NCBI GenBank assembly: GCA_965230295.1
Contig: OZ246001.1
Span: 3,552,001-3,616,000, forward strand
Length of the DNA stretch: 64,000 nucleotides
Direction: 5' to 3'
Source: Marinicella sp.
Lineage (GTDB): Bacteria; Pseudomonadota; Gammaproteobacteria; Xanthomonadales; Marinicellaceae
The number at the start of each line of letters is the position of its first letter. Position 1 is the first letter of the stretch. The notes beneath the pieces are model-generated. The model made no database searches, was not told where the DNA came from, and was given only the letters and a program-made list of their open reading frames with translations. Shown here piece after piece: positions 46,688-53,006 of the stretch. The translations under genes were made by a program, and so were the position numbers.

Positions 46688-46872
46688 TAAAGGATTGTAA
46701 AAAACAAGTAATTACATTTGGCATATTCAATCAGAGGCCAAAATAAGGTAATTTGTAACACTTTTACCTATGAACCGTGAAGTCAGGGTGATCGAATTAA
46801 ACGACCGCTACATATATATTGATGGTAAAATTTTTTGCTTTTACTCACAACCACTCACTTGGGAGACATGAC

Positions 46873-49800
46873 ATGCTAAAACCCTTTGTACGACGAAAAC
46901 ACATCAAGCTCTGCGTGTGTATTCTGATGTTGTTATCATTCGTTTCAATGGCCAACACAACCGATCAATCAGGGACAAAATTACTGCGATTTGCAGATAT
47001 TCATAAAAACAAAGTGACCTTTGTTTATGGCGGTGACATCTACACTGCAGACATACAGTCAGGCCAAGCAAAACGACTGACTTCACACAAAGGTTTTGAG
47101 ACATTTCCTAAGTTTTCTCGTGATGGCAATAAAATCGCTTTCACCGCTGAATACACGGGATCAAGACAGGTTTATGTGATGAATACCGACGGCAGTGGTT
47201 TAAAACAACTGACATGGTATAACGACGTGGGCCCCATGCCACCAAGAGGTGGTTTTGATTATCGCATCTTAGACTGGTCAGCTGACAGTCAAAATATATT
47301 GGTGCGTGCCAATCGATTGCCTTGGGGCATTCGTATGGGACAACCTTATTGGGTCCCAGTACAAGGTGGCATGGAACAACCATTGGCTGTTCCTGAAACC
47401 GGTGGTGGCATGTTGTCACCTGATGGTAAAAAATTCATATACACCCCGATAGACCGTGAATTCAGAACCTGGAAACGCTATCGTGGTGGCCGTGCTCAAG
47501 ACGTATGGGTTTATGACTTAGAAGCCAACAGCAGTGAGCAATTAACCACCCATGCGGCCACTGACCATCAACCGGTATGGGTTGGTGAGGACATCTATTT
47601 CATCAGTGACCGTGATTATCATTTGAATTTGTATCGATATGTGGCAGGTGGTGAACCTGTAAAGGTCACAGATCATCAACAGTATGATGCATTGTGGGCA
47701 TCGGCCGGCCCAGATGCCATAGTTTATGAAAATGGTGGAAATCTCTGGCGATATGACCCAGCAAGCCAGCAAACCGAACCATTGAATATCAAAATCACAG
47801 CCAATCAGGAACACCTGTTGGCGCAGCGGAAAAATGTCAAAGACAACATAGATTCGATGACCATATCCCCTGATGCCAAACGGGTGGTTATTGCAGCCAG
47901 AGGAGAGCTGTTCTCAGTACCTGCAAAGACTGGTGAAATCAAAAACATCAGCAATACCCCCAGTGCCAGAGAAATTGATGTGACGTGGTCACCTGATGGT
48001 AAGCAGGTTGCTTATTTAAGTGATGCTTCTGGTGAGTATGAACTGTATACCAAAAACATCAAAACCAACAAAGTGACACGCATAACCAGTGATGGCAATA
48101 CTTGGCGCTTCCCGCCGGTGTGGTCACCTGACAGCCAGAAAATTGCTTACGCCGATACCAACCAAACTTTATGGGTCGCTGATGTTGAGAAGAAGAAAAG
48201 CAAAAAAGTAGATCGTTCCAGCAGAAATTTCATTCAAGACTATAGTTGGTCACCTGACAGTCAATGGTTGGTTTACAGCAAAACTGAAAACAGTGGATTT
48301 GGCTCATTGTATGTCTACAATCTGGGTGGTGACAAAGTCAGTCGTTTAACCAGTGAGTCATTCAATGATTTCTCCCCAGTCTTTGACCCTAACGGCCGTT
48401 ACTTGTTTTTCTTGTCTAACCGAGACTACAACTTGTCTTTCAGCAGTTATGAGTTCAATTATTTATACCATCGGGCTACTCGTGTCTATGCAGCCACACT
48501 CAACGATGACGTGCCTGCACTGTATCCATTTCAAAATGATGGCATGAGTACGGCTTCTAAAAACAATAAAAAAGCGGACACCGATAAAAATGCTGACAAT
48601 GAAGAAATCACAACAGTAGACATTAAATTGGCTGGATTTGATGACAGGGTTCGGGCATTACCAGGCGGTGCCAGCAATTATAACAACCTACAGTCTAATG
48701 GAGATGCGGTCTTTGTGGTTGAAAATGGAACCAATGGAAACAGCATCAAAATCATCAGTTTAGAAGACAATGAACAACCCAAAGTGGTGATGGCAGGTGC
48801 AACCAATTACCTCTTGTCGGGAGACGGTAAAAGCATGTTGGTTCAAAAAGGTCAAAACCACCACATTGTCAAAGCGGCTGCCGATCAAAAAGCCAAAGAA
48901 AACCAACTGGATCTCAAACATTTAACTTTAAAAATTGACCCGAAAGTTGAATGGCAACAAATGTATACGGATGCCTGGAGGATCCTCAGGGATTGGTTCT
49001 ATGATCCAGGTATGCATGGCAATGACTGGCAAGCCATACATGATAAATACCAACCCATGGCAGCTGCCGCCACCCATCGCACCGATTTAGACTACGTTTT
49101 TGGCGAGATCGCCGGTGAAATGAATGCTGGACACATCTATGTCAATTCTGGTGATCAACCACAAGTGGAGCGCCAACAGAATGGTTTGCTTGGTGCTGAA
49201 TTCGAAAAACACAAAAGTGGTTATTTTAAAATCAGTAAAATCTTTGCCGGTGAGAACTGGACTCCCAACAGGCGTTCTCCATTGACTGAATCTGGGATAA
49301 AAGCTGCTGTGGGTGATTTTGTGTTGTCAATCAATGGTCACAGTACCAAAGACACTGCCAATATTTATCAATTGTTGGAGCACACCCTGGACCGCACTGT
49401 GAGTATCGAATTGAATGACCAGGCGAAAGAATCAGGATCTTGGACGGTCCATGTCAAACCCATTGGTTCAGAAAGCCAGTTGCGTTACTTTAATTGGGTT
49501 GAAGAACGCCGTGCGATGGTAGACAAGTTGTCAGGAGGGCGCATTGGTTACGTTCACTTACCCAATACAGCCATTGATGGCAATCGTGAGTTGTTCAAAC
49601 AAATGCTCCCACAAATAGGTAAAGATGCTTTGATCATTGACGATCGTTACAATGGGGGTGGTTTTATCCCTGATCGCATGATCGAACTGTTGTCGCGTAA
49701 AACCATCAACTACTGGAAGCGCAGAGGTCTGGATTTAGACAGCAACGCCACACCATTGATTGCTCATGATGGGCCTAAAGTGATGTTAACCAACGGCCAA

Positions 49801-50145
49801 TCCAGTTCAGGTGGTGATGCCTTACCTTATTATTTCCGCAAAGCAGGCTTGGGTAAAATCATTGGTACCCGCACGTGGGGTGGATTGATTGGGATCAGTG
49901 GAAATCCAGGGCTGGCAGACGGTGGATCGATTTTGGCTTCAACATTCAGATTTATGGATACAGAAGGCAATTGGGCGGTAGAAAATGAAGGGGTTTCGCC
50001 TGATATTGAAGTGATCGATCGACCAGAGTTGGTGGCAGCGGGTAAAGACCCGTCCATTGAACGGGCGGTTGAGGAATTACTGAAAGACTTGAAAGAAAAC
50101 CCCAGGAAAACGATCAAGTCGCCGCCAGCGCCCACTGAATTTTAA
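46873..50145 (+). CDS. Tricorn-type S41 protease (PD40 propellers, PDZ, S41)
   Basis: WSPD repeats, WRILRDWFYDPGMHG, GRIGYVHLP, IIDDRYNGGG, SSGGD, IGTRTWGG, VENEGVSPDIEV. GGAG before ATG 46873. Confidence 0.94.
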   Translation: MLKPFVRRKHIKLCVCILMLLSFVSMANTTDQSGTKLLRFADIHKNKVTFVYGGDIYTADIQSGQAKRLTSHKGFETFPKFSRDGNKIAFTAEYTGSRQVYVMNTDGSGLKQLTWYNDVGPMPPRGGFDYRILDWSADSQNILVRANRLPWGIRMGQPYWVPVQGGMEQPLAVPETGGGMLSPDGKKFIYTPIDREFRTWKRYRGGRAQDVWVYDLEANSSEQLTTHAATDHQPVWVGEDIYFISDRDYHLNLYRYVAGGEPVKVTDHQQYDALWASAGPDAIVYENGGNLWRYDPASQQTEPLNIKITANQEHLLAQRKNVKDNIDSMTISPDAKRVVIAARGELFSVPAKTGEIKNISNTPSAREIDVTWSPDGKQVAYLSDASGEYELYTKNIKTNKVTRITSDGNTWRFPPVWSPDSQKIAYADTNQTLWVADVEKKKSKKVDRSSRNFIQDYSWSPDSQWLVYSKTENSGFGSLYVYNLGGDKVSRLTSESFNDFSPVFDPNGRYLFFLSNRDYNLSFSSYEFNYLYHRATRVYAATLNDDVPALYPFQNDGMSTASKNNKKADTDKNADNEEITTVDIKLAGFDDRVRALPGGASNYNNLQSNGDAVFVVENGTNGNSIKIISLEDNEQPKVVMAGATNYLLSGDGKSMLVQKGQNHHIVKAAADQKAKENQLDLKHLTLKIDPKVEWQQMYTDAWRILRDWFYDPGMHGNDWQAIHDKYQPMAAAATHRTDLDYVFGEIAGEMNAGHIYVNSGDQPQVERQQNGLLGAEFEKHKSGYFKISKIFAGENWTPNRRSPLTESGIKAAVGDFVLSINGHSTKDTANIYQLLEHTLDRTVSIELNDQAKESGSWTVHVKPIGSESQLRYFNWVEERRAMVDKLSGGRIGYVHLPNTAIDGNRELFKQMLPQIGKDALIIDDRYNGGGFIPDRMIELLSRKTINYWKRRGLDLDSNATPLIAHDGPKVMLTNGQSSSGGDALPYYFRKAGLGKIIGTRTWGGLIGISGNPGLADGGSILASTFRFMDTEGNWAVENEGVSPDIEVIDRPELVAAGKDPSIERAVEELLKDLKENPRKTIKSPPAPTEF

Positions 50146-50164: not shown

Positions 50165-50188
50165 ATAGATTGACTTTTACCAATCTAT
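50165..50188. promoter_or_regulatory. Inverted repeat (operator/UAS candidate) overlapping a TTGACT -35-like hexamer
   Basis: ATAGATTG-N8-CAATCTAT, perfect 8-bp arms. Confidence 0.55.
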
Positions 50189-50251
50189 GTGAAAAATGTA
50201 CGCACTTGTCCGATGGGTTCGGGCAAGTGTAACCATTAAAAACGTGCTATG

Positions 50252-50267
50252 TGGCACCGAATTAGCA
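50252..50267 (+). promoter_or_regulatory. Candidate sigma54 -24/-12 promoter
   Basis: TGGCACCGAATTAGCA: GG (50253-54), N10, GC (50265-66). E. coli rtcBA is sigma54-dependent. Confidence 0.5.
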
Positions 50268-50285
50268 TCTAAAGGAGGCTTAAAC

Positions 50286-50318
50286 ATGCAAAACAAATAT
50301 ACGAGAAAAATGAGTTAA
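50286..50318 (+). CDS. Putative leader peptide MQNKYTRKMS
   Basis: AGGAGG at 50273-50278, ATG 50286, TAA 50316-50318, directly abutting attenuator helices. Confidence 0.72.
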   Translation: MQNKYTRKMS

Positions 50319-50320
50319 GC

Positions 50321-50413
50321 GCCTACCAACATATTTTGTTTGGAAGGCCAAGATTAACAGTGCCTTTCAGACTTTCAAAAAGCCTGAAATGCATTGCATG
50401 TCGGGCTTTTTTT
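50321..50413 (+). terminator. Transcription attenuator (alternative antiterminator/terminator) upstream of rtcB
   Basis: Terminator aaaaagcctga..tcgggc-T7 (50377-50413). Its 5' arm also pairs with 50365-50375, and 50362-50372 pairs with 50338-50348, which also pairs with 50321-50331. Confidence 0.78.
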
Positions 50414-50566
50414 ATGCCAGAAAAAAGGCAAGCCTGATTTTTATAAGGAAACAGGCAGCAAGTATTTGCTGCTCAATCAGAGGAGTCTTGTGAGGTCGGT
50501 TTTCATCCGAAGAGCTTGCCCTGATACAGATCGGGGATGAAAGAAGGGAAACAAGACACAAAAACT

Positions 50567-51766
50567 ATGCCAATATTAAAACAAATAAACAAGGGTAAAG
50601 TACCCATAAAAATATATACAGAGGACATTGCACCCCAAGCCATCAATCAACTGGTGAATATTGCCAATTTGCCCATTGTTCACCACCATGTGGCAGTCAT
50701 GCCGGATGTGCATGTTGGGATTGGAGCCACCGTAGGTTCGGTGATTCCCACACTCAATGCTGTTATTCCAGCAGCGGTTGGCGTTGACATCGGTTGTGGT
50801 ATGAATGCGGTGAGAACCAGCTTAACAGCCAATGACTTACCAGATCATTTATTTGGTGTCAGGCGTGAAATTGAACGACTTGTTCCTGTAGGTTTCAACA
50901 AACACAAGAAGTCGGTGGTCAACCGGTCCAGTATCAATGGATTAGACAAGCCATTGGATGAAATCTTACATAAACACCCAGGCATCATGAAAATGTTGAA
51001 AAACTTCAACCCGACCTGGCAAAACCAGTTGGGTACATTGGGAGGAGGTAACCACTTCATTGAATTGTGTCTGGATGAAAATGATGATGTGTGGATTATG
51101 CTTCACTCCGGTTCTCGTGGCATCGGCAATGTGATTGGTCGATACTTCATCAACCTGGCCAAGAAAGACATGCAAAGACACCAACATCATTTACCTGATG
51201 TTAACTTGTCTTACTTGTCGGAAGGCAGTGATCATTTCGATGATTATGTGATGGCTGTTAATTGGGCCCAGGAGTATGCCTGGATGAATCGCCAGGAGAT
51301 GATGAAATTGGTGGTGAAGGCATTGCAAAACAGTGCATTGCCAGCATTCACTTTAACCAAGAAAGCCATCAACTGCCACCATAACTACATATCTCACGAG
51401 ACCCATTATGGAGAGGCGGTTTATGTAACCCGTAAAGGTGCCATCAGAGCAGGTGAAGGTGAGCTTGGCATCATTCCAGGGTCAATGGGAGCTAAATCCT
51501 ATATTGTTGAAGGTAGGGGTTCAAAAACATCATTCTGTTCATGTGCACATGGAGCAGGGCGAACCATGAGCCGCACCGAAGCCAAACGAACTTTCAATAC
51601 CCAGGATTTGAAACATCAAACCATGGGTGTTGAATGTCGCAAAGACAAGAACATGCTGGATGAAATTCCGGGTGCCTATAAGGACATCGATCAAGTGATG
51701 GAGAATCAACATGATTTGGTGTCTGTGGTTCATACTTTGAAACAAGTGGTTTGTGTCAAAGGATGA
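50567..51766 (+). CDS. rtcB: RNA ligase RtcB (3'-phosphate/5'-OH ligase)
   Basis: MPDVH, VGVDIGCGM, GTLGGGNHFIE, LHSGSRG, CHHNY, RKGA, IPGSMG, AHGAGR, DEIPGAYKDI. Start at MPILK (ORF track 50537). Confidence 0.97.
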   Translation: MPILKQINKGKVPIKIYTEDIAPQAINQLVNIANLPIVHHHVAVMPDVHVGIGATVGSVIPTLNAVIPAAVGVDIGCGMNAVRTSLTANDLPDHLFGVRREIERLVPVGFNKHKKSVVNRSSINGLDKPLDEILHKHPGIMKMLKNFNPTWQNQLGTLGGGNHFIELCLDENDDVWIMLHSGSRGIGNVIGRYFINLAKKDMQRHQHHLPDVNLSYLSEGSDHFDDYVMAVNWAQEYAWMNRQEMMKLVVKALQNSALPAFTLTKKAINCHHNYISHETHYGEAVYVTRKGAIRAGEGELGIIPGSMGAKSYIVEGRGSKTSFCSCAHGAGRTMSRTEAKRTFNTQDLKHQTMGVECRKDKNMLDEIPGAYKDIDQVMENQHDLVSVVHTLKQVVCVKG

Positions 51767-51886: not shown

Positions 51887-52849
51887 ATGAACAAACAACT
51901 GTTAGACGAGGTGTTGTATTGCTTATCTGATGATCGACACACATACCATTATTTCAAAGATAAATATTGTATGTTCCTGTTAGATCATTACATCAAGGAA
52001 GAAACACCCGTTAAAAATATTAAAAACAGCCACTTAGCCAGGTTTTGCCAAAAACCAGTGGTCAAAACATGGTTAGCCGGCATGGGTAAGAAAACCGTCA
52101 ATCCAGAAATGATAGCTGCCATGTGGCCAACTGATCTATATCACTTCACTGTGACATTAGGTCAGTGGGGTGGTGATGACCCCTATTGGCAACAAACGGC
52201 CAGACCCGGGTTTAACCTGGTGGTTCAATTGAACTTCAGTCGTACACACGATCGAATGTATCAGGCAGTGATTGAAAAAGATTCTACATATCAACCTTTT
52301 GTTTGTGAATCTCATCCAATCCATGGGCATCGAAACACCATTGCTTGGGCGCGTTTAGACATCAGTGAAGATTTTTCAGAGGTGCTGATTGAAGAAGTAC
52401 AAAATGATTGGCTCAGATATGCTTGGGGGCTTTATCAGTCCATTAAGAAAGATCCCAATGCAGAACGCCTGGCACGGCATGGCTTTCGAACCAATTGGGA
52501 TCGACTTCAAGCTTACTTTGAAGATGAGATCAAACCCATGATGCAGGTATGGGATGAAGCCATCTTGTGTGCCACATTGGAATATGTAGTCACTCAGATT
52601 GGCGCGGAAAAGATCTATATGTATGACCATTTGACCGGTGTAGAGATGAAATCGATGGGTCATTGGCATCCACCCAGATCTTTATACACCCAACTGCCTA
52701 AAAAGTTCGGTTTTGAAATCACGACGGAATCACCCCGATTTTACCAGGATGATTTTCGTCTTGAACGGCGAATGAAAAAGATTCGCCAAAGGATGACGCC
52801 TAAATGGCATTTTTTAAATTTAAACAAAGGAGGTATCTATGCCCAATAA
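51887..52849 (+). CDS. Uncharacterised 320-aa protein in the rtcB operon
   Basis: Long co-oriented ORF; motifs QTARPGFNLVVQLNF, TIAWARLD, LIEEVQNDW, PPRSLYTQLPKKFGF. No family recognised. Confidence 0.88.
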   Translation: MNKQLLDEVLYCLSDDRHTYHYFKDKYCMFLLDHYIKEETPVKNIKNSHLARFCQKPVVKTWLAGMGKKTVNPEMIAAMWPTDLYHFTVTLGQWGGDDPYWQQTARPGFNLVVQLNFSRTHDRMYQAVIEKDSTYQPFVCESHPIHGHRNTIAWARLDISEDFSEVLIEEVQNDWLRYAWGLYQSIKKDPNAERLARHGFRTNWDRLQAYFEDEIKPMMQVWDEAILCATLEYVVTQIGAEKIYMYDHLTGVEMKSMGHWHPPRSLYTQLPKKFGFEITTESPRFYQDDFRLERRMKKIRQRMTPKWHFLNLNKGGIYAQ

Positions 52850-53006
52850 CAACCGCAGAAACTGGGTTGCCAGAGCAGCCATTATGCGCAAAGGCGGGGT
52901 TCATGAAAAAACCCATAAGACCAAAAGAAAACAGGCCAAGCAGGCCTTAAAGAAAAAAATCAGAGCCGAGCACTTCGGCTCTTTTTTGTTGGGTATTCGC
53001 CAATAG
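52839..53006 (+). CDS. 55-aa highly basic protein, candidate alternative ribosome-rescue factor (not in ORF track)
   Basis: AGGAGG at 52828-52833; ATG overlaps the upstream gene end. MPNNNRRNWVARAAIMRKGGVHEKTHKTKRKQAKQALKKKIRAEHFGSFLLGIRQ; 16 K/R vs 2 E. Confidence 0.75.
   Translation: MPNNNRRNWVARAAIMRKGGVHEKTHKTKRKQAKQALKKKIRAEHFGSFLLGIRQ
52962..52987 (+). terminator. Intrinsic terminator inside the 55-aa ORF
   Basis: agagccga-gcact-tcggctct then T run to 52987; the ORF stop is at 53004-53006. Confidence 0.8.

Follow-up and report, generated by a model that had tools for sequence, protein, structure and literature searches.

The described regulatory system closest to the one considered here is the leader peptide PA5471.1 of Pseudomonas aeruginosa, which is reported to control armZ (PA5471), the gene of an 'RtcB-like RNA ligase' located next to PA5470/prfH (PMC13041342, PMC12057347). 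According to these accounts, the 3:4 terminator forms when PA5471.1 is completely translated, whereas stalled ribosomes abolish the terminator (PMC13041342, legend of Fig. 6; PMC12057347). Stalling is attributed to ribosome-targeting antibiotics or to defects in suhB, cca, fmt and folD (PMC13041342, PMC12057347, PMC3884212), and an amber codon at position 3 of PA5471.1 is reported to activate transcription (PMC13041342, PMC12057347). In a review from 2025 that deals with armZ, the only case characterised, the regulation of an anti-repressor by a leader peptide is said to appear unique to MexXY (PMC12057347). Here, a putative leader-peptide transcription attenuator is described that precedes rtcB in a 64,000-nt stretch of DNA from Marinicella sp. 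(assembly GCA_965230295.1, contig OZ246001.1, positions 3,552,001-3,616,000 of the forward strand). This whole stretch will be denoted as the window, and all coordinates are those within it.

Among the systems compared, the Marinicella leader appears closest to PA5471.1-armZ and would follow the same inferred logic, the two being likened by the description of the Pseudomonas leader and not by a comparison of sequences. In both cases a short leader peptide is placed before an RtcB-like gene, the first downstream gene in the window coding for RtcB (Pfam, 2e-130). Full translation leads to the terminator in the Pseudomonas account and would do so in Marinicella, with stalling preventing it, and neither leader has a codon run for one amino acid. 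A co-transcribed neighbour that deals with stalled ribosomes, which is a feature described for Pseudomonas, is counted as a further likeness. The two leaders differ in that PA5471.1 is described with four segments and a 3:4 terminator, whereas the Marinicella leader has five to six segments and an open reading frame (ORF) ending before segment 1. The partner gene in Pseudomonas is prfH (PA5470), in contrast to a 320-amino-acid protein without a Pfam RF-1 domain and a 55-amino-acid basic protein in Marinicella, and ArmZ is also described as the MexZ anti-repressor, again a Pseudomonas feature.

The classical attenuators (trpL, hisL, pheL, leuL, thrL, ilv) combine a promoter-proximal ORF, mutually exclusive hairpins and a terminator, and the position of the ribosome decides which fold is adopted; regulatory codon runs are located inside segment 1 and stalling favours a 2:3 antiterminator. 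The Marinicella leader shares the ORF, the exclusive hairpins, the terminator and, by prediction, the ribosome-position logic, but it lacks a codon run, its ORF lies wholly upstream of segment 1, and one or two extra relay segments are present. In the erm, vmlR, msrD and mef/mel leaders, a ribosome stalled on a short upstream ORF is described as remodelling the RNA and turning on a gene that relieves translation stress (PMC9226507, PMC10314930, PMC4335068, PMC8274638). Remodelling of the RNA by a ribosome stalled on a short upstream ORF would be common to these leaders and to that of Marinicella. The former, however, are described as requiring an arrest in the exit tunnel that is specific to drug and peptide, and several of them act on translation, whereas the Marinicella attenuator would act on transcription; as its leader peptide is not conserved, sequence-specific arrest is unlikely. 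The E. coli rtcBA genes, under RtcR/sigma-54, are described as responding to damage of the translation apparatus (PMC12606134, PMC5416887). There the same enzyme is regulated by a trans-acting activator protein, in contrast to the putative cis control by a leader RNA in Marinicella. RtcB repairs broken tRNA and rRNA, and the timing of its synthesis in bacteria without RtcR has been little studied. In the literature searched, no such leader upstream of rtcB was described outside Pseudomonas, and no paper joined rtcB and Marinicella.

By its sequence, the Marinicella element is a well-conserved new attenuator of a known regulatory kind that is absent from Rfam, a search of which gave no meaningful match (top match rli38 with 27.8 bits against a gathering score of 49, E 0.33). 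Our preferred reading, which we consider probable though far from certain, is that it acts as a ribosome-dependent leader-peptide transcription attenuator of an operon composed of rtcB, the 320-amino-acid ORF and the small basic protein gene, where a loaded and early-held ribosome would be the ON state and the absence of a ribosome would probably leave the operon OFF or leaky. The evidence consists of the sequence, its conservation, pairing in register and the fold preferred thermodynamically when a ribosome is masked in, from which translation of the ORF, termination or read-through and the inducing conditions are inferred. The element is harbored in a 421-nt intergenic gap with the gene of a tricorn-like S41 protease (46819-50145) as 5' neighbour and rtcB as 3' neighbour. 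Its features are given below; the Shine-Dalgarno (SD) sequence is also counted as segment 0.

50170-50197, + strand: predicted sigma-70-like promoter, TTGACT and AAAAAT spaced by 16 nt (pattern scan)
50202-50230, + strand: 5' hairpin of 12 bp, close to or at the predicted start of the transcript (RNA fold)
50273-50278, + strand: SD sequence AGGAGG of the leader ORF, segment 0 (read in the sequence)
50286-50318, + strand: leader ORF, MQNKYTRKMS followed by TAA, with ATG at 50286-50288 and stop codon at 50316-50318 (read in the sequence)
50321-50331, + strand: segment 1, gcctaccaa (50321-29) followed by ca; partner is segment 2 (sequence, 1:2 hairpin)
50338-50348, + strand: segment 2, gtttggaaggc, containing ttggaaggc (50340-48); partners are segment 1 or 3 (sequence, pairing counts)
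50362-50375, + strand: segment 3, gcctttcagacttt; partners are segment 2 (anti-antiterminator) or segment 4 (antiterminator) (pair counts)
50377-50392, + strand: segment 4, 5' arm of the terminator, containing aaagcctgaaa (50379-89) (RNAfold, pair counts)
50396-50413, + strand: segment 5, 3' arm of the terminator and T7 tract (50407-50413) (RNAfold, pair counts)
50432-50437, + strand: 'segment 6', GCCTGA, complementary to segment 5 (word search in copies)

A count by hand gives 8 pairs and one A.A mismatch for hairpin 1:2, 11 pairs with G.U among them for 2:3, and 10 pairs and one A.C mismatch for 3:4, segment 3 contributing gcctttcagac (50362-72) to 2:3 and tttcagacttt (50365-75) to 3:4. Helices 1:2, 2:3 and 3:4 share segments pairwise and 3:4 overlaps the 5' arm of the terminator, so that antiterminator and terminator are mutually exclusive. 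Folding of 50273-50413 (141 nt) with RNAfold gives a minimum free energy (MFE) of -39.9 kcal/mol with helix 2:3 and a 15-bp terminator, the stem of which comprises 50377-87/50401-11 and 50389-92/50396-99 (hairpin -16.2 kcal/mol) and is followed by the T7 tract. The z-score of this region is -4.40, with 0 of 200 dinucleotide shuffles folding equally well, and that of the entire intergenic region is -6.0. A simple terminator scan of the window does not list the terminator of the attenuator, because the scan is restricted to loops of 3-8 and interprets the bulged stem in another way. No tRNA was found in the window by ARAGORN.

Upstream of the leader ORF, TTGAC(a/t/c) together with a -10-like A/T hexamer is found at the matching place in all 11 upstream regions compared. 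The 5' hairpin is retained in relatives with changed sequence (CACTTG../..CAAGTG as opposed to CATCCCCTGAC../..GTCAGGGGATG) and may contribute to the stability of the RNA. An 8-bp inverted repeat, ATAGATTG...CAATCTAT (50165-50188), straddles the -35 box of the leader promoter; it was not seen in the upstream regions of the relatives compared.

Counts for the leader and the helices refer to a set of 23 full-length copies from Marinicellaceae. Each of them has an SD sequence (GGAGG in 22 and GGAAG in 1; in the window AGGAGG is followed by 7 nt and the ATG) and an ATG-initiated leader ORF with a length of 10 codons in 20 copies, 9 codons in 1 and 11 codons in 2, and in every copy the stop codon is located directly 5' of segment 1. 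At the sequence level, a short ORF with a ribosome-binding site and predicted to be translated is thus found in the 5' leader of the operon. The encoded peptide is not conserved (MQNKYTRKMS, MLYTIVRKTT, MTFNRENTQD, MKIQPNIYNA and others), and MQNKYTRKMS contains no repeated codon run of the sort that amino-acid-sensing attenuators of the trp/his type would have. The A content of the leader ORFs at codon positions 1/2/3 is 0.55/0.55/0.51. An enrichment in codons of the form NAN (Gln, Asn, Lys, His, Tyr), which are read by tRNAs that ribotoxins target, was considered and rejected, as 115 of 208 codons are NAN but A-richness is equal at all positions. To judge from these copies, selection acts on frame, length and unstructured composition, and not on the peptide or on particular codons. 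Since neither peptide nor codons are conserved, the sensor would report the general speed or health of translation and not the supply of one amino acid.

Helices 2:3, 3:4 and 4:5 were scored on the 23-sequence alignment by the percentage of cells with standard pairs in comparison with slid controls. Helix 2:3 reaches 94.9% (best slid control 68%), helix 3:4 reaches 90.1% (59%) and helix 4:5 reaches 88.6% (56%). U-A to A-U double changes are found in helix 3:4 in 2 sequences, and helix 4:5 has double changes at 5 pairs, its score being reached by 0 of 500 shuffles. In one relative (L012/L032) an extra hairpin is inserted exactly in the 3:4 loop. The 1:2 hairpin, tested sequence by sequence, is predicted in 23/23 copies, and in 21 it is better than 95% of the arm shuffles. 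Its energy in the window is -10.2 kcal/mol, and matched variants are found among the copies, namely CCAA/TTGG, CCAG/CTGG, CCCGGA/TCCGG and GCCTTTC/GAAGGGC. The terminator between leader ORF and structural gene is kept throughout (23/23). Within 50 nt after the T-run, a GCCTGA-like word is found in 15 of the 23 copies, either directly or behind a small hairpin (50416-18/50427-29 in the window). The predicted 5:6 hairpins amount to about -6 to -20 kcal/mol; pairing of 5 with 6 could occur only in read-through RNA and would extend the relay.

At the start codon of the leader ORF, ACATGCAA (50284-50291) is the exact complement of TTGCATGT atop the terminator (50394-50401), and this pairing is used in the MFE structure of 425 nt. 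ATGCA is kept in most Marinicellaceae terminators; its co-occurrence with CATGCA at the leader start is imperfect.

In order to mimic the decision point, transcripts of the 23 copies were folded up to the end of segment 4, with the 3' arm of the terminator not yet made and with the ribosome-covered parts masked; energy differences are expressed as antiterminator minus terminator-permissive state. With the ribosome at the stop codon (mask to +12), 2:3 is formed and segment 4 is free for the terminator in 23/23 copies (mean +6.8 kcal/mol). With the ribosome over the SD sequence up to codon ~5, 1:2 and 3:4 are formed in 21/23 copies (mean -4.1 kcal/mol). The free RNA is near a tie (mean +1.4 kcal/mol), the antiterminator being favoured in 7/23 and the terminator-permissive state in 16/23. 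When the established sizes of ribosome footprints are applied to the window, a ribosome with UAA 50316 in its A site is predicted to reach ~50328 and hence to cover segment 1 (50321-29), and with the P site within codons 1-6 the predicted footprint ends before 50319. The geometry of ORF and segment 1 thus fits a ribosome-position switch.

Much of what a first-pass annotation of this DNA had proposed is borne out by these results. This applies to the AGGAGG-ATG opening of MQNKYTRKMS, to the five segments with their 1:2, 2:3 and 3:4 pairings, all of which were located and checked pair by pair, to the 4:5 terminator with its T7 tract, and to the masking of segment 1 by a ribosome at the stop codon with 2:3 and 4:5 as the outcome. 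Constrained folding, which it had named as a check, selects the expected folds for both the stop and the start mask. Its suggestion that a leader without codon run senses general ribosome failure agrees with the unconserved peptide and with an A content that is equal at all codon positions. It had further claimed that a stalled or an absent ribosome leads to read-through; the former half holds under the start mask, but the latter is not secured by a free RNA that is close to a tie and terminator-permissive in most relatives. A pairing of the SD/start region with the stop/segment-1 region, missing from its scheme, is predicted here as a sixth segment.

BLAST of the intergenic DNA gave matches in 16 of 61 related genomes, with a conserved core that extends from the SD sequence to ~40 nt past the T tract, and a covariance model built from 11 copies matches 24 of 44 Marinicellaceae genomes. 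The element follows the operon closely. An rtcB orthologue with at least 78% identity is present in 21 genomes, all of which also have the element (21/21), and in none of the 20 element-less genomes. In the remaining 3 element-bearing genomes (G026, G030, G062) the element is placed directly before the small basic gene, which is the third gene of the rtcB operon in the window; loci L037, L038 and L042 have the leader element directly upstream of this gene. Among the full-length copies, 21/23 have rtcB within 700 nt downstream and the remaining 2 are followed by the small basic gene that belongs to the operon. The upstream neighbour varies, with the tricorn gene found in only 5 of 13 loci, and the element therefore belongs to the downstream genes. 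Within the genome of the window itself, one strong and one weak partial match of the covariance model were found, thus the element is not a dispersed repeat. Across the order (151 genomes sampled) there is almost no match outside Marinicellaceae. The two weak ones, L048 and L051, lie in rRNA-operon leaders beside GCTCTTTAACAA, which we take to be boxA-like, and were dropped as unrelated, as were reverse-strand matches to the palindromic terminator.

With respect to its extent, which the first-pass annotation had given as 50273-50413, the core of the element stands, but its limits have to be widened by the promoter-like site and the 5' hairpin upstream and by the complementary segment at 50432-37 downstream. 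Control of rtcB, likewise proposed there, agrees with the co-occurrence in all 21 orthologue-bearing genomes, yet is incomplete in that the operon comprises rtcB and two uncharacterised genes.

Beyond Marinicellaceae, 80 loci encoding relatives of the window RtcB were scanned with the covariance model in the region just upstream and on the same strand. Matches upstream of rtcB were obtained in Parahaliea (52.5 bits), in Ketobacter-like bacteria (45.5, 41 and 32.2 bits), in Cellvibrionaceae (37.7, 37.7 and 35.3 bits), in Moraxellaceae (25.9 bits) and in Acinetobacter (24.5 and 21 bits). A simple scan for an SD sequence, a short ORF and a terminator within 380 nt upstream of rtcB was positive in 42 of 78 loci with enough upstream sequence, among them 16 of Janthinobacterium (leader MFEQAGSK..YH) and one of Neisseriaceae; one of the 42 has a doubtful 5-codon ORF and in another one the wrong ORF was picked by the script. 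The segment sequences in distant lineages are unrelated to those of Marinicella. That the design is kept with unrelated segments speaks for a relay of purely structural nature rather than for a pocket that binds a ligand. When the mask test was applied to 7 distant leaders, a clear switch was observed in 3 (L074, L082, L097).

The preferred mechanism may be outlined as follows. Transcription from the promoter at ~50170-97 would yield a leader RNA with a strong SD sequence and a 10-codon A-rich ORF, followed by a relay in which each segment can pair with either neighbour, i.e. SD(0):1, 1:2, 2:3, 3:4 and 4:5, the last being the terminator. If the first ribosome promptly reaches the stop codon, it would cover segment 1, 2:3 would form, and segment 4 would be left free for 4:5, which together with U7 would terminate transcription at ~50413 (OFF). 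If the ribosome is held at the start or within the first ~6 codons, it would occupy the SD sequence and leave segment 1 free, 1:2 and 3:4 would form, and in the absence of a terminator the polymerase would read into rtcB (ON). If no ribosome is present, the SD region could pair with segment 1, favouring 2:3 and 4:5 in most relatives; the default would probably be OFF or leaky, and this is the least certain branch.

It is this branch on which an otherwise identical attenuator could work the other way round. Untranslated RNA would then be read through, 1:2 and 3:4 folding in the order of transcription, and lost initiation as well as stalling would lead to ON, which we regard as unlikely but as a serious alternative. 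The free window transcript ending with segment 4 indeed has 1:2 and 3:4 as its MFE structure (antiterminator -23.7 as opposed to terminator-permissive -22.5 kcal/mol, i.e. 1.2 apart); in stepwise folding of the free RNA 1:2 appears before any other structure, as soon as segment 2 has emerged, in 20/23 copies, and both 1:2 and 3:4 are short-range and would fold fast. On further elongation, however, the MFE flips to SD:1 and 2:3 once segment 3 is out in 21/23 copies, and the free RNA prefers this combination in 16/23 relatives. Much depends on the SD:segment-1 helix. In the MFE structure of the window leader, the SD region is base-paired to the region of stop codon and segment 1 (AGG..GCUUAA / UUAAGC.CCU, -8.1 kcal/mol), and out of 30 leaders such a pairing is predicted for 29. 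It may have arisen through composition, as a read-through default would have it. Against this, the three leaders in which it is significant are from distant lineages and have a helix of 11-12 bp with the sequence changed on both sides, and such matching changes suggest that the pairing is selected. The helix is likely to be real but unproven.

Two further explanations would dispense with ribosome control of rtcB altogether. The 210-nt transcript (~50204-50413) could be the product of an independent small gene or small RNA (sRNA), with rtcB transcribed from its own promoter and the alternative pairings incidental. The unit from promoter to terminator is self-complete, the terminated RNA has 5' and 3' hairpins like many stable sRNAs, and in the window the T tract is ~150 nt away from the rtcB ATG. 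In five close relatives, though, this distance is only ~50-57 nt, the promoter scan of the window lists no + strand site between terminator and rtcB, the element co-occurs perfectly with the operon, the peptide is unconserved, and the mutually exclusive helices persist even in lineages that cannot be aligned otherwise; the sRNA explanation is therefore very unlikely. A switch independent of the ribosome, be it a riboswitch or an antiterminator that binds a protein or an RNA fragment, with the short ORF being incidental, is extremely improbable. It would account for the near-invariance of GGAAGGC, GCCTTTCAG and AAGCCTGA within Marinicellaceae, which goes beyond the needs of pairing, and E. coli Rtc is induced via RNA-fragment sensing by RtcR. 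But the two pairing partners of each conserved segment explain the conservation as well, Rfam contains no matching family, and in Ketobacter-like bacteria, Cellvibrionaceae, Moraxellaceae and Janthinobacterium unrelated words replace the invariant ones, with SD sequence, ~10-codon ORF, relay and terminator persisting.

The reading preferred here, a ribosome-dependent attenuator with the early-held ribosome as ON state, has to be set against several observations that weigh against it. The mask test was ambiguous or failed in 4/7 distant leaders (weak in L104 and L087, failed in L092 and L098). On the MAFFT alignment helix 1:2 scores no better than slid controls (62.3%), which is due to misalignment of segment 1. 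High segment conservation within Marinicellaceae leaves few double changes (1 to 5 per helix), and shuffle tests on related sequences can be beaten without any structure. The SD:segment-1 pairing is not separable from composition in 27/30 leaders, as it beats composition-matched shuffles in 3/30. An open A-rich frame of 9 codons is expected by chance in an estimated half or so of sequences of such composition. At equilibrium the full-length leader always favours the terminator state (~-29 as opposed to -18 kcal/mol), thus the decision of the switch must be kinetic. Finally, ~115 nt of extra structured RNA (50452-50566) lie between the attenuator and the window rtcB ATG and may contain an internal promoter.

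Downstream of the attenuator the following genes are found.

50567-51766, + strand: rtcB, RNA 3'-phosphate ligase, first structural gene (Pfam RtcB 2e-130; RtcB relatives in the PDB)
51887-52849, + strand: 320-amino-acid ORF of no known family, second gene (no Pfam family; in Atlas only 'hypothetical protein' clusters, Pseudomonadota)
52839-53006, + strand: 55-amino-acid basic ORF (MPNNNRRNWVARAAIMRKGGVHEK...), third gene, with an intrinsic-terminator hairpin and T-run inside the ORF (52962-52987)

The start of rtcB is taken as ATG 50567, the conserved MPILKQ aligning from residue 11 of the longest ORF. This ATG has no obvious SD sequence; the ancestral rtcB SD sequence AAGGAA, which is followed by the ATG within 8 nt in five relatives, is parted from it by 50452-50566. 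The first part of this insert matches G006, whose spacer is long, too. A second RtcB paralogue (~62% identity) exists in other Marinicella genomes (L124, L126, L129) and is absent from that of the window (G000). It is preceded by a terminator ~55 nt upstream and, before that, by a ~22-codon ORF (MKNLYTKQ...) with no clear SD sequence, and gives weak model matches.

The 320-amino-acid ORF overlaps the start of the small basic gene by 11 nt, and homologues of it are flanked by rtcB and the small gene in three distant loci as well, those of Parahaliea, Cellvibrionaceae and Moraxellaceae. Of 12 distant loci inspected, 10 have the small basic gene behind rtcB. Among the 20 homologues of the small basic protein, conservation ends with the hairpin-encoded R-AE-xFGSF(L), after which random tails diverge in sequence and length. 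When 11 copies were scanned, the in-ORF terminator was found in 5, that of the window included. ArfA and BrfA are made from non-stop mRNAs. The in-ORF terminator and the end of conservation at this position therefore point to an ArfA/BrfA-like non-stop-mRNA layout, by analogy with which the 55-amino-acid protein is a candidate for a new ribosome-rescue factor. An assignment as ArfA itself was rejected, as there is no Pfam or NCBIfam match, no PF03889 in the genome and no ArfA among the PDB profile matches. In the genome of the window (single contig, 97.9% complete) searches for RtcR (PF06956) and RtcA (PF01137) gave 0 matches, the E. coli control being positive for both; the E. coli type of rtc control, in which an RtcR/sigma-54 regulated rtc operon goes along with rtcR and rtcA in the genome, is thus not found here.

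For bacteria of this kind the leader suggests a simple answer to the question of when RtcB is made, namely that the cell would monitor how its ribosomes advance along a short ORF without meaning of its own, and leaders of this design are found again before rtcB orthologues in several groups of Gamma- and Betaproteobacteria. If this is true, the rule would be a wider one, with Pseudomonas armZ as one instance of it, a 'translation health' sensor that does not depend on codons would be available as a clean model, and both uncharacterised proteins of the operon would be candidates for a part in ribosome rescue or RNA repair. Rfam could take up the element as a family. A broader proposal, which we consider conceivable but on balance doubtful, is that the relay attenuator is the cis-element of an RtcR-independent 'translation-damage regulon' in many Proteobacteria, with the ribosome stalled on a meaningless 10-codon ORF as its sensor. 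Its units would be an operon of RtcB together with a new small basic rescue factor made, like ArfA and BrfA, from non-stop mRNA that arises through the terminator within its ORF, and a separate tRNA-like/Y-RNA-like locus behind a paralogous attenuator elsewhere in the genome.

Such a paralogous relay attenuator is found outside the window, on the minus strand of locus L056 (G000:C1:218093-221165, at ~1229-1760), upstream of two abutting tRNA-like genes. It comprises a promoter-like TTGACT/TAGAAT, a 32-codon leader (MNLNYFNIK...) with its stop codon abutting GCCCTTCAA/TTGAAAGGC/GCCTTTCAGG, followed by a terminator. For the tRNA-like genes the match to YrlA (Y RNA-like) stays below threshold (35 bits against a gathering score of 69), and no Rsr/TROVE gene was found in the genome of the window. 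Covariance-model matches like that of L056 precede tRNA-like pairs in 3 relatives (L045, L046, L050), and mask folding of the L056 leader results in the same switch as for the window leader.

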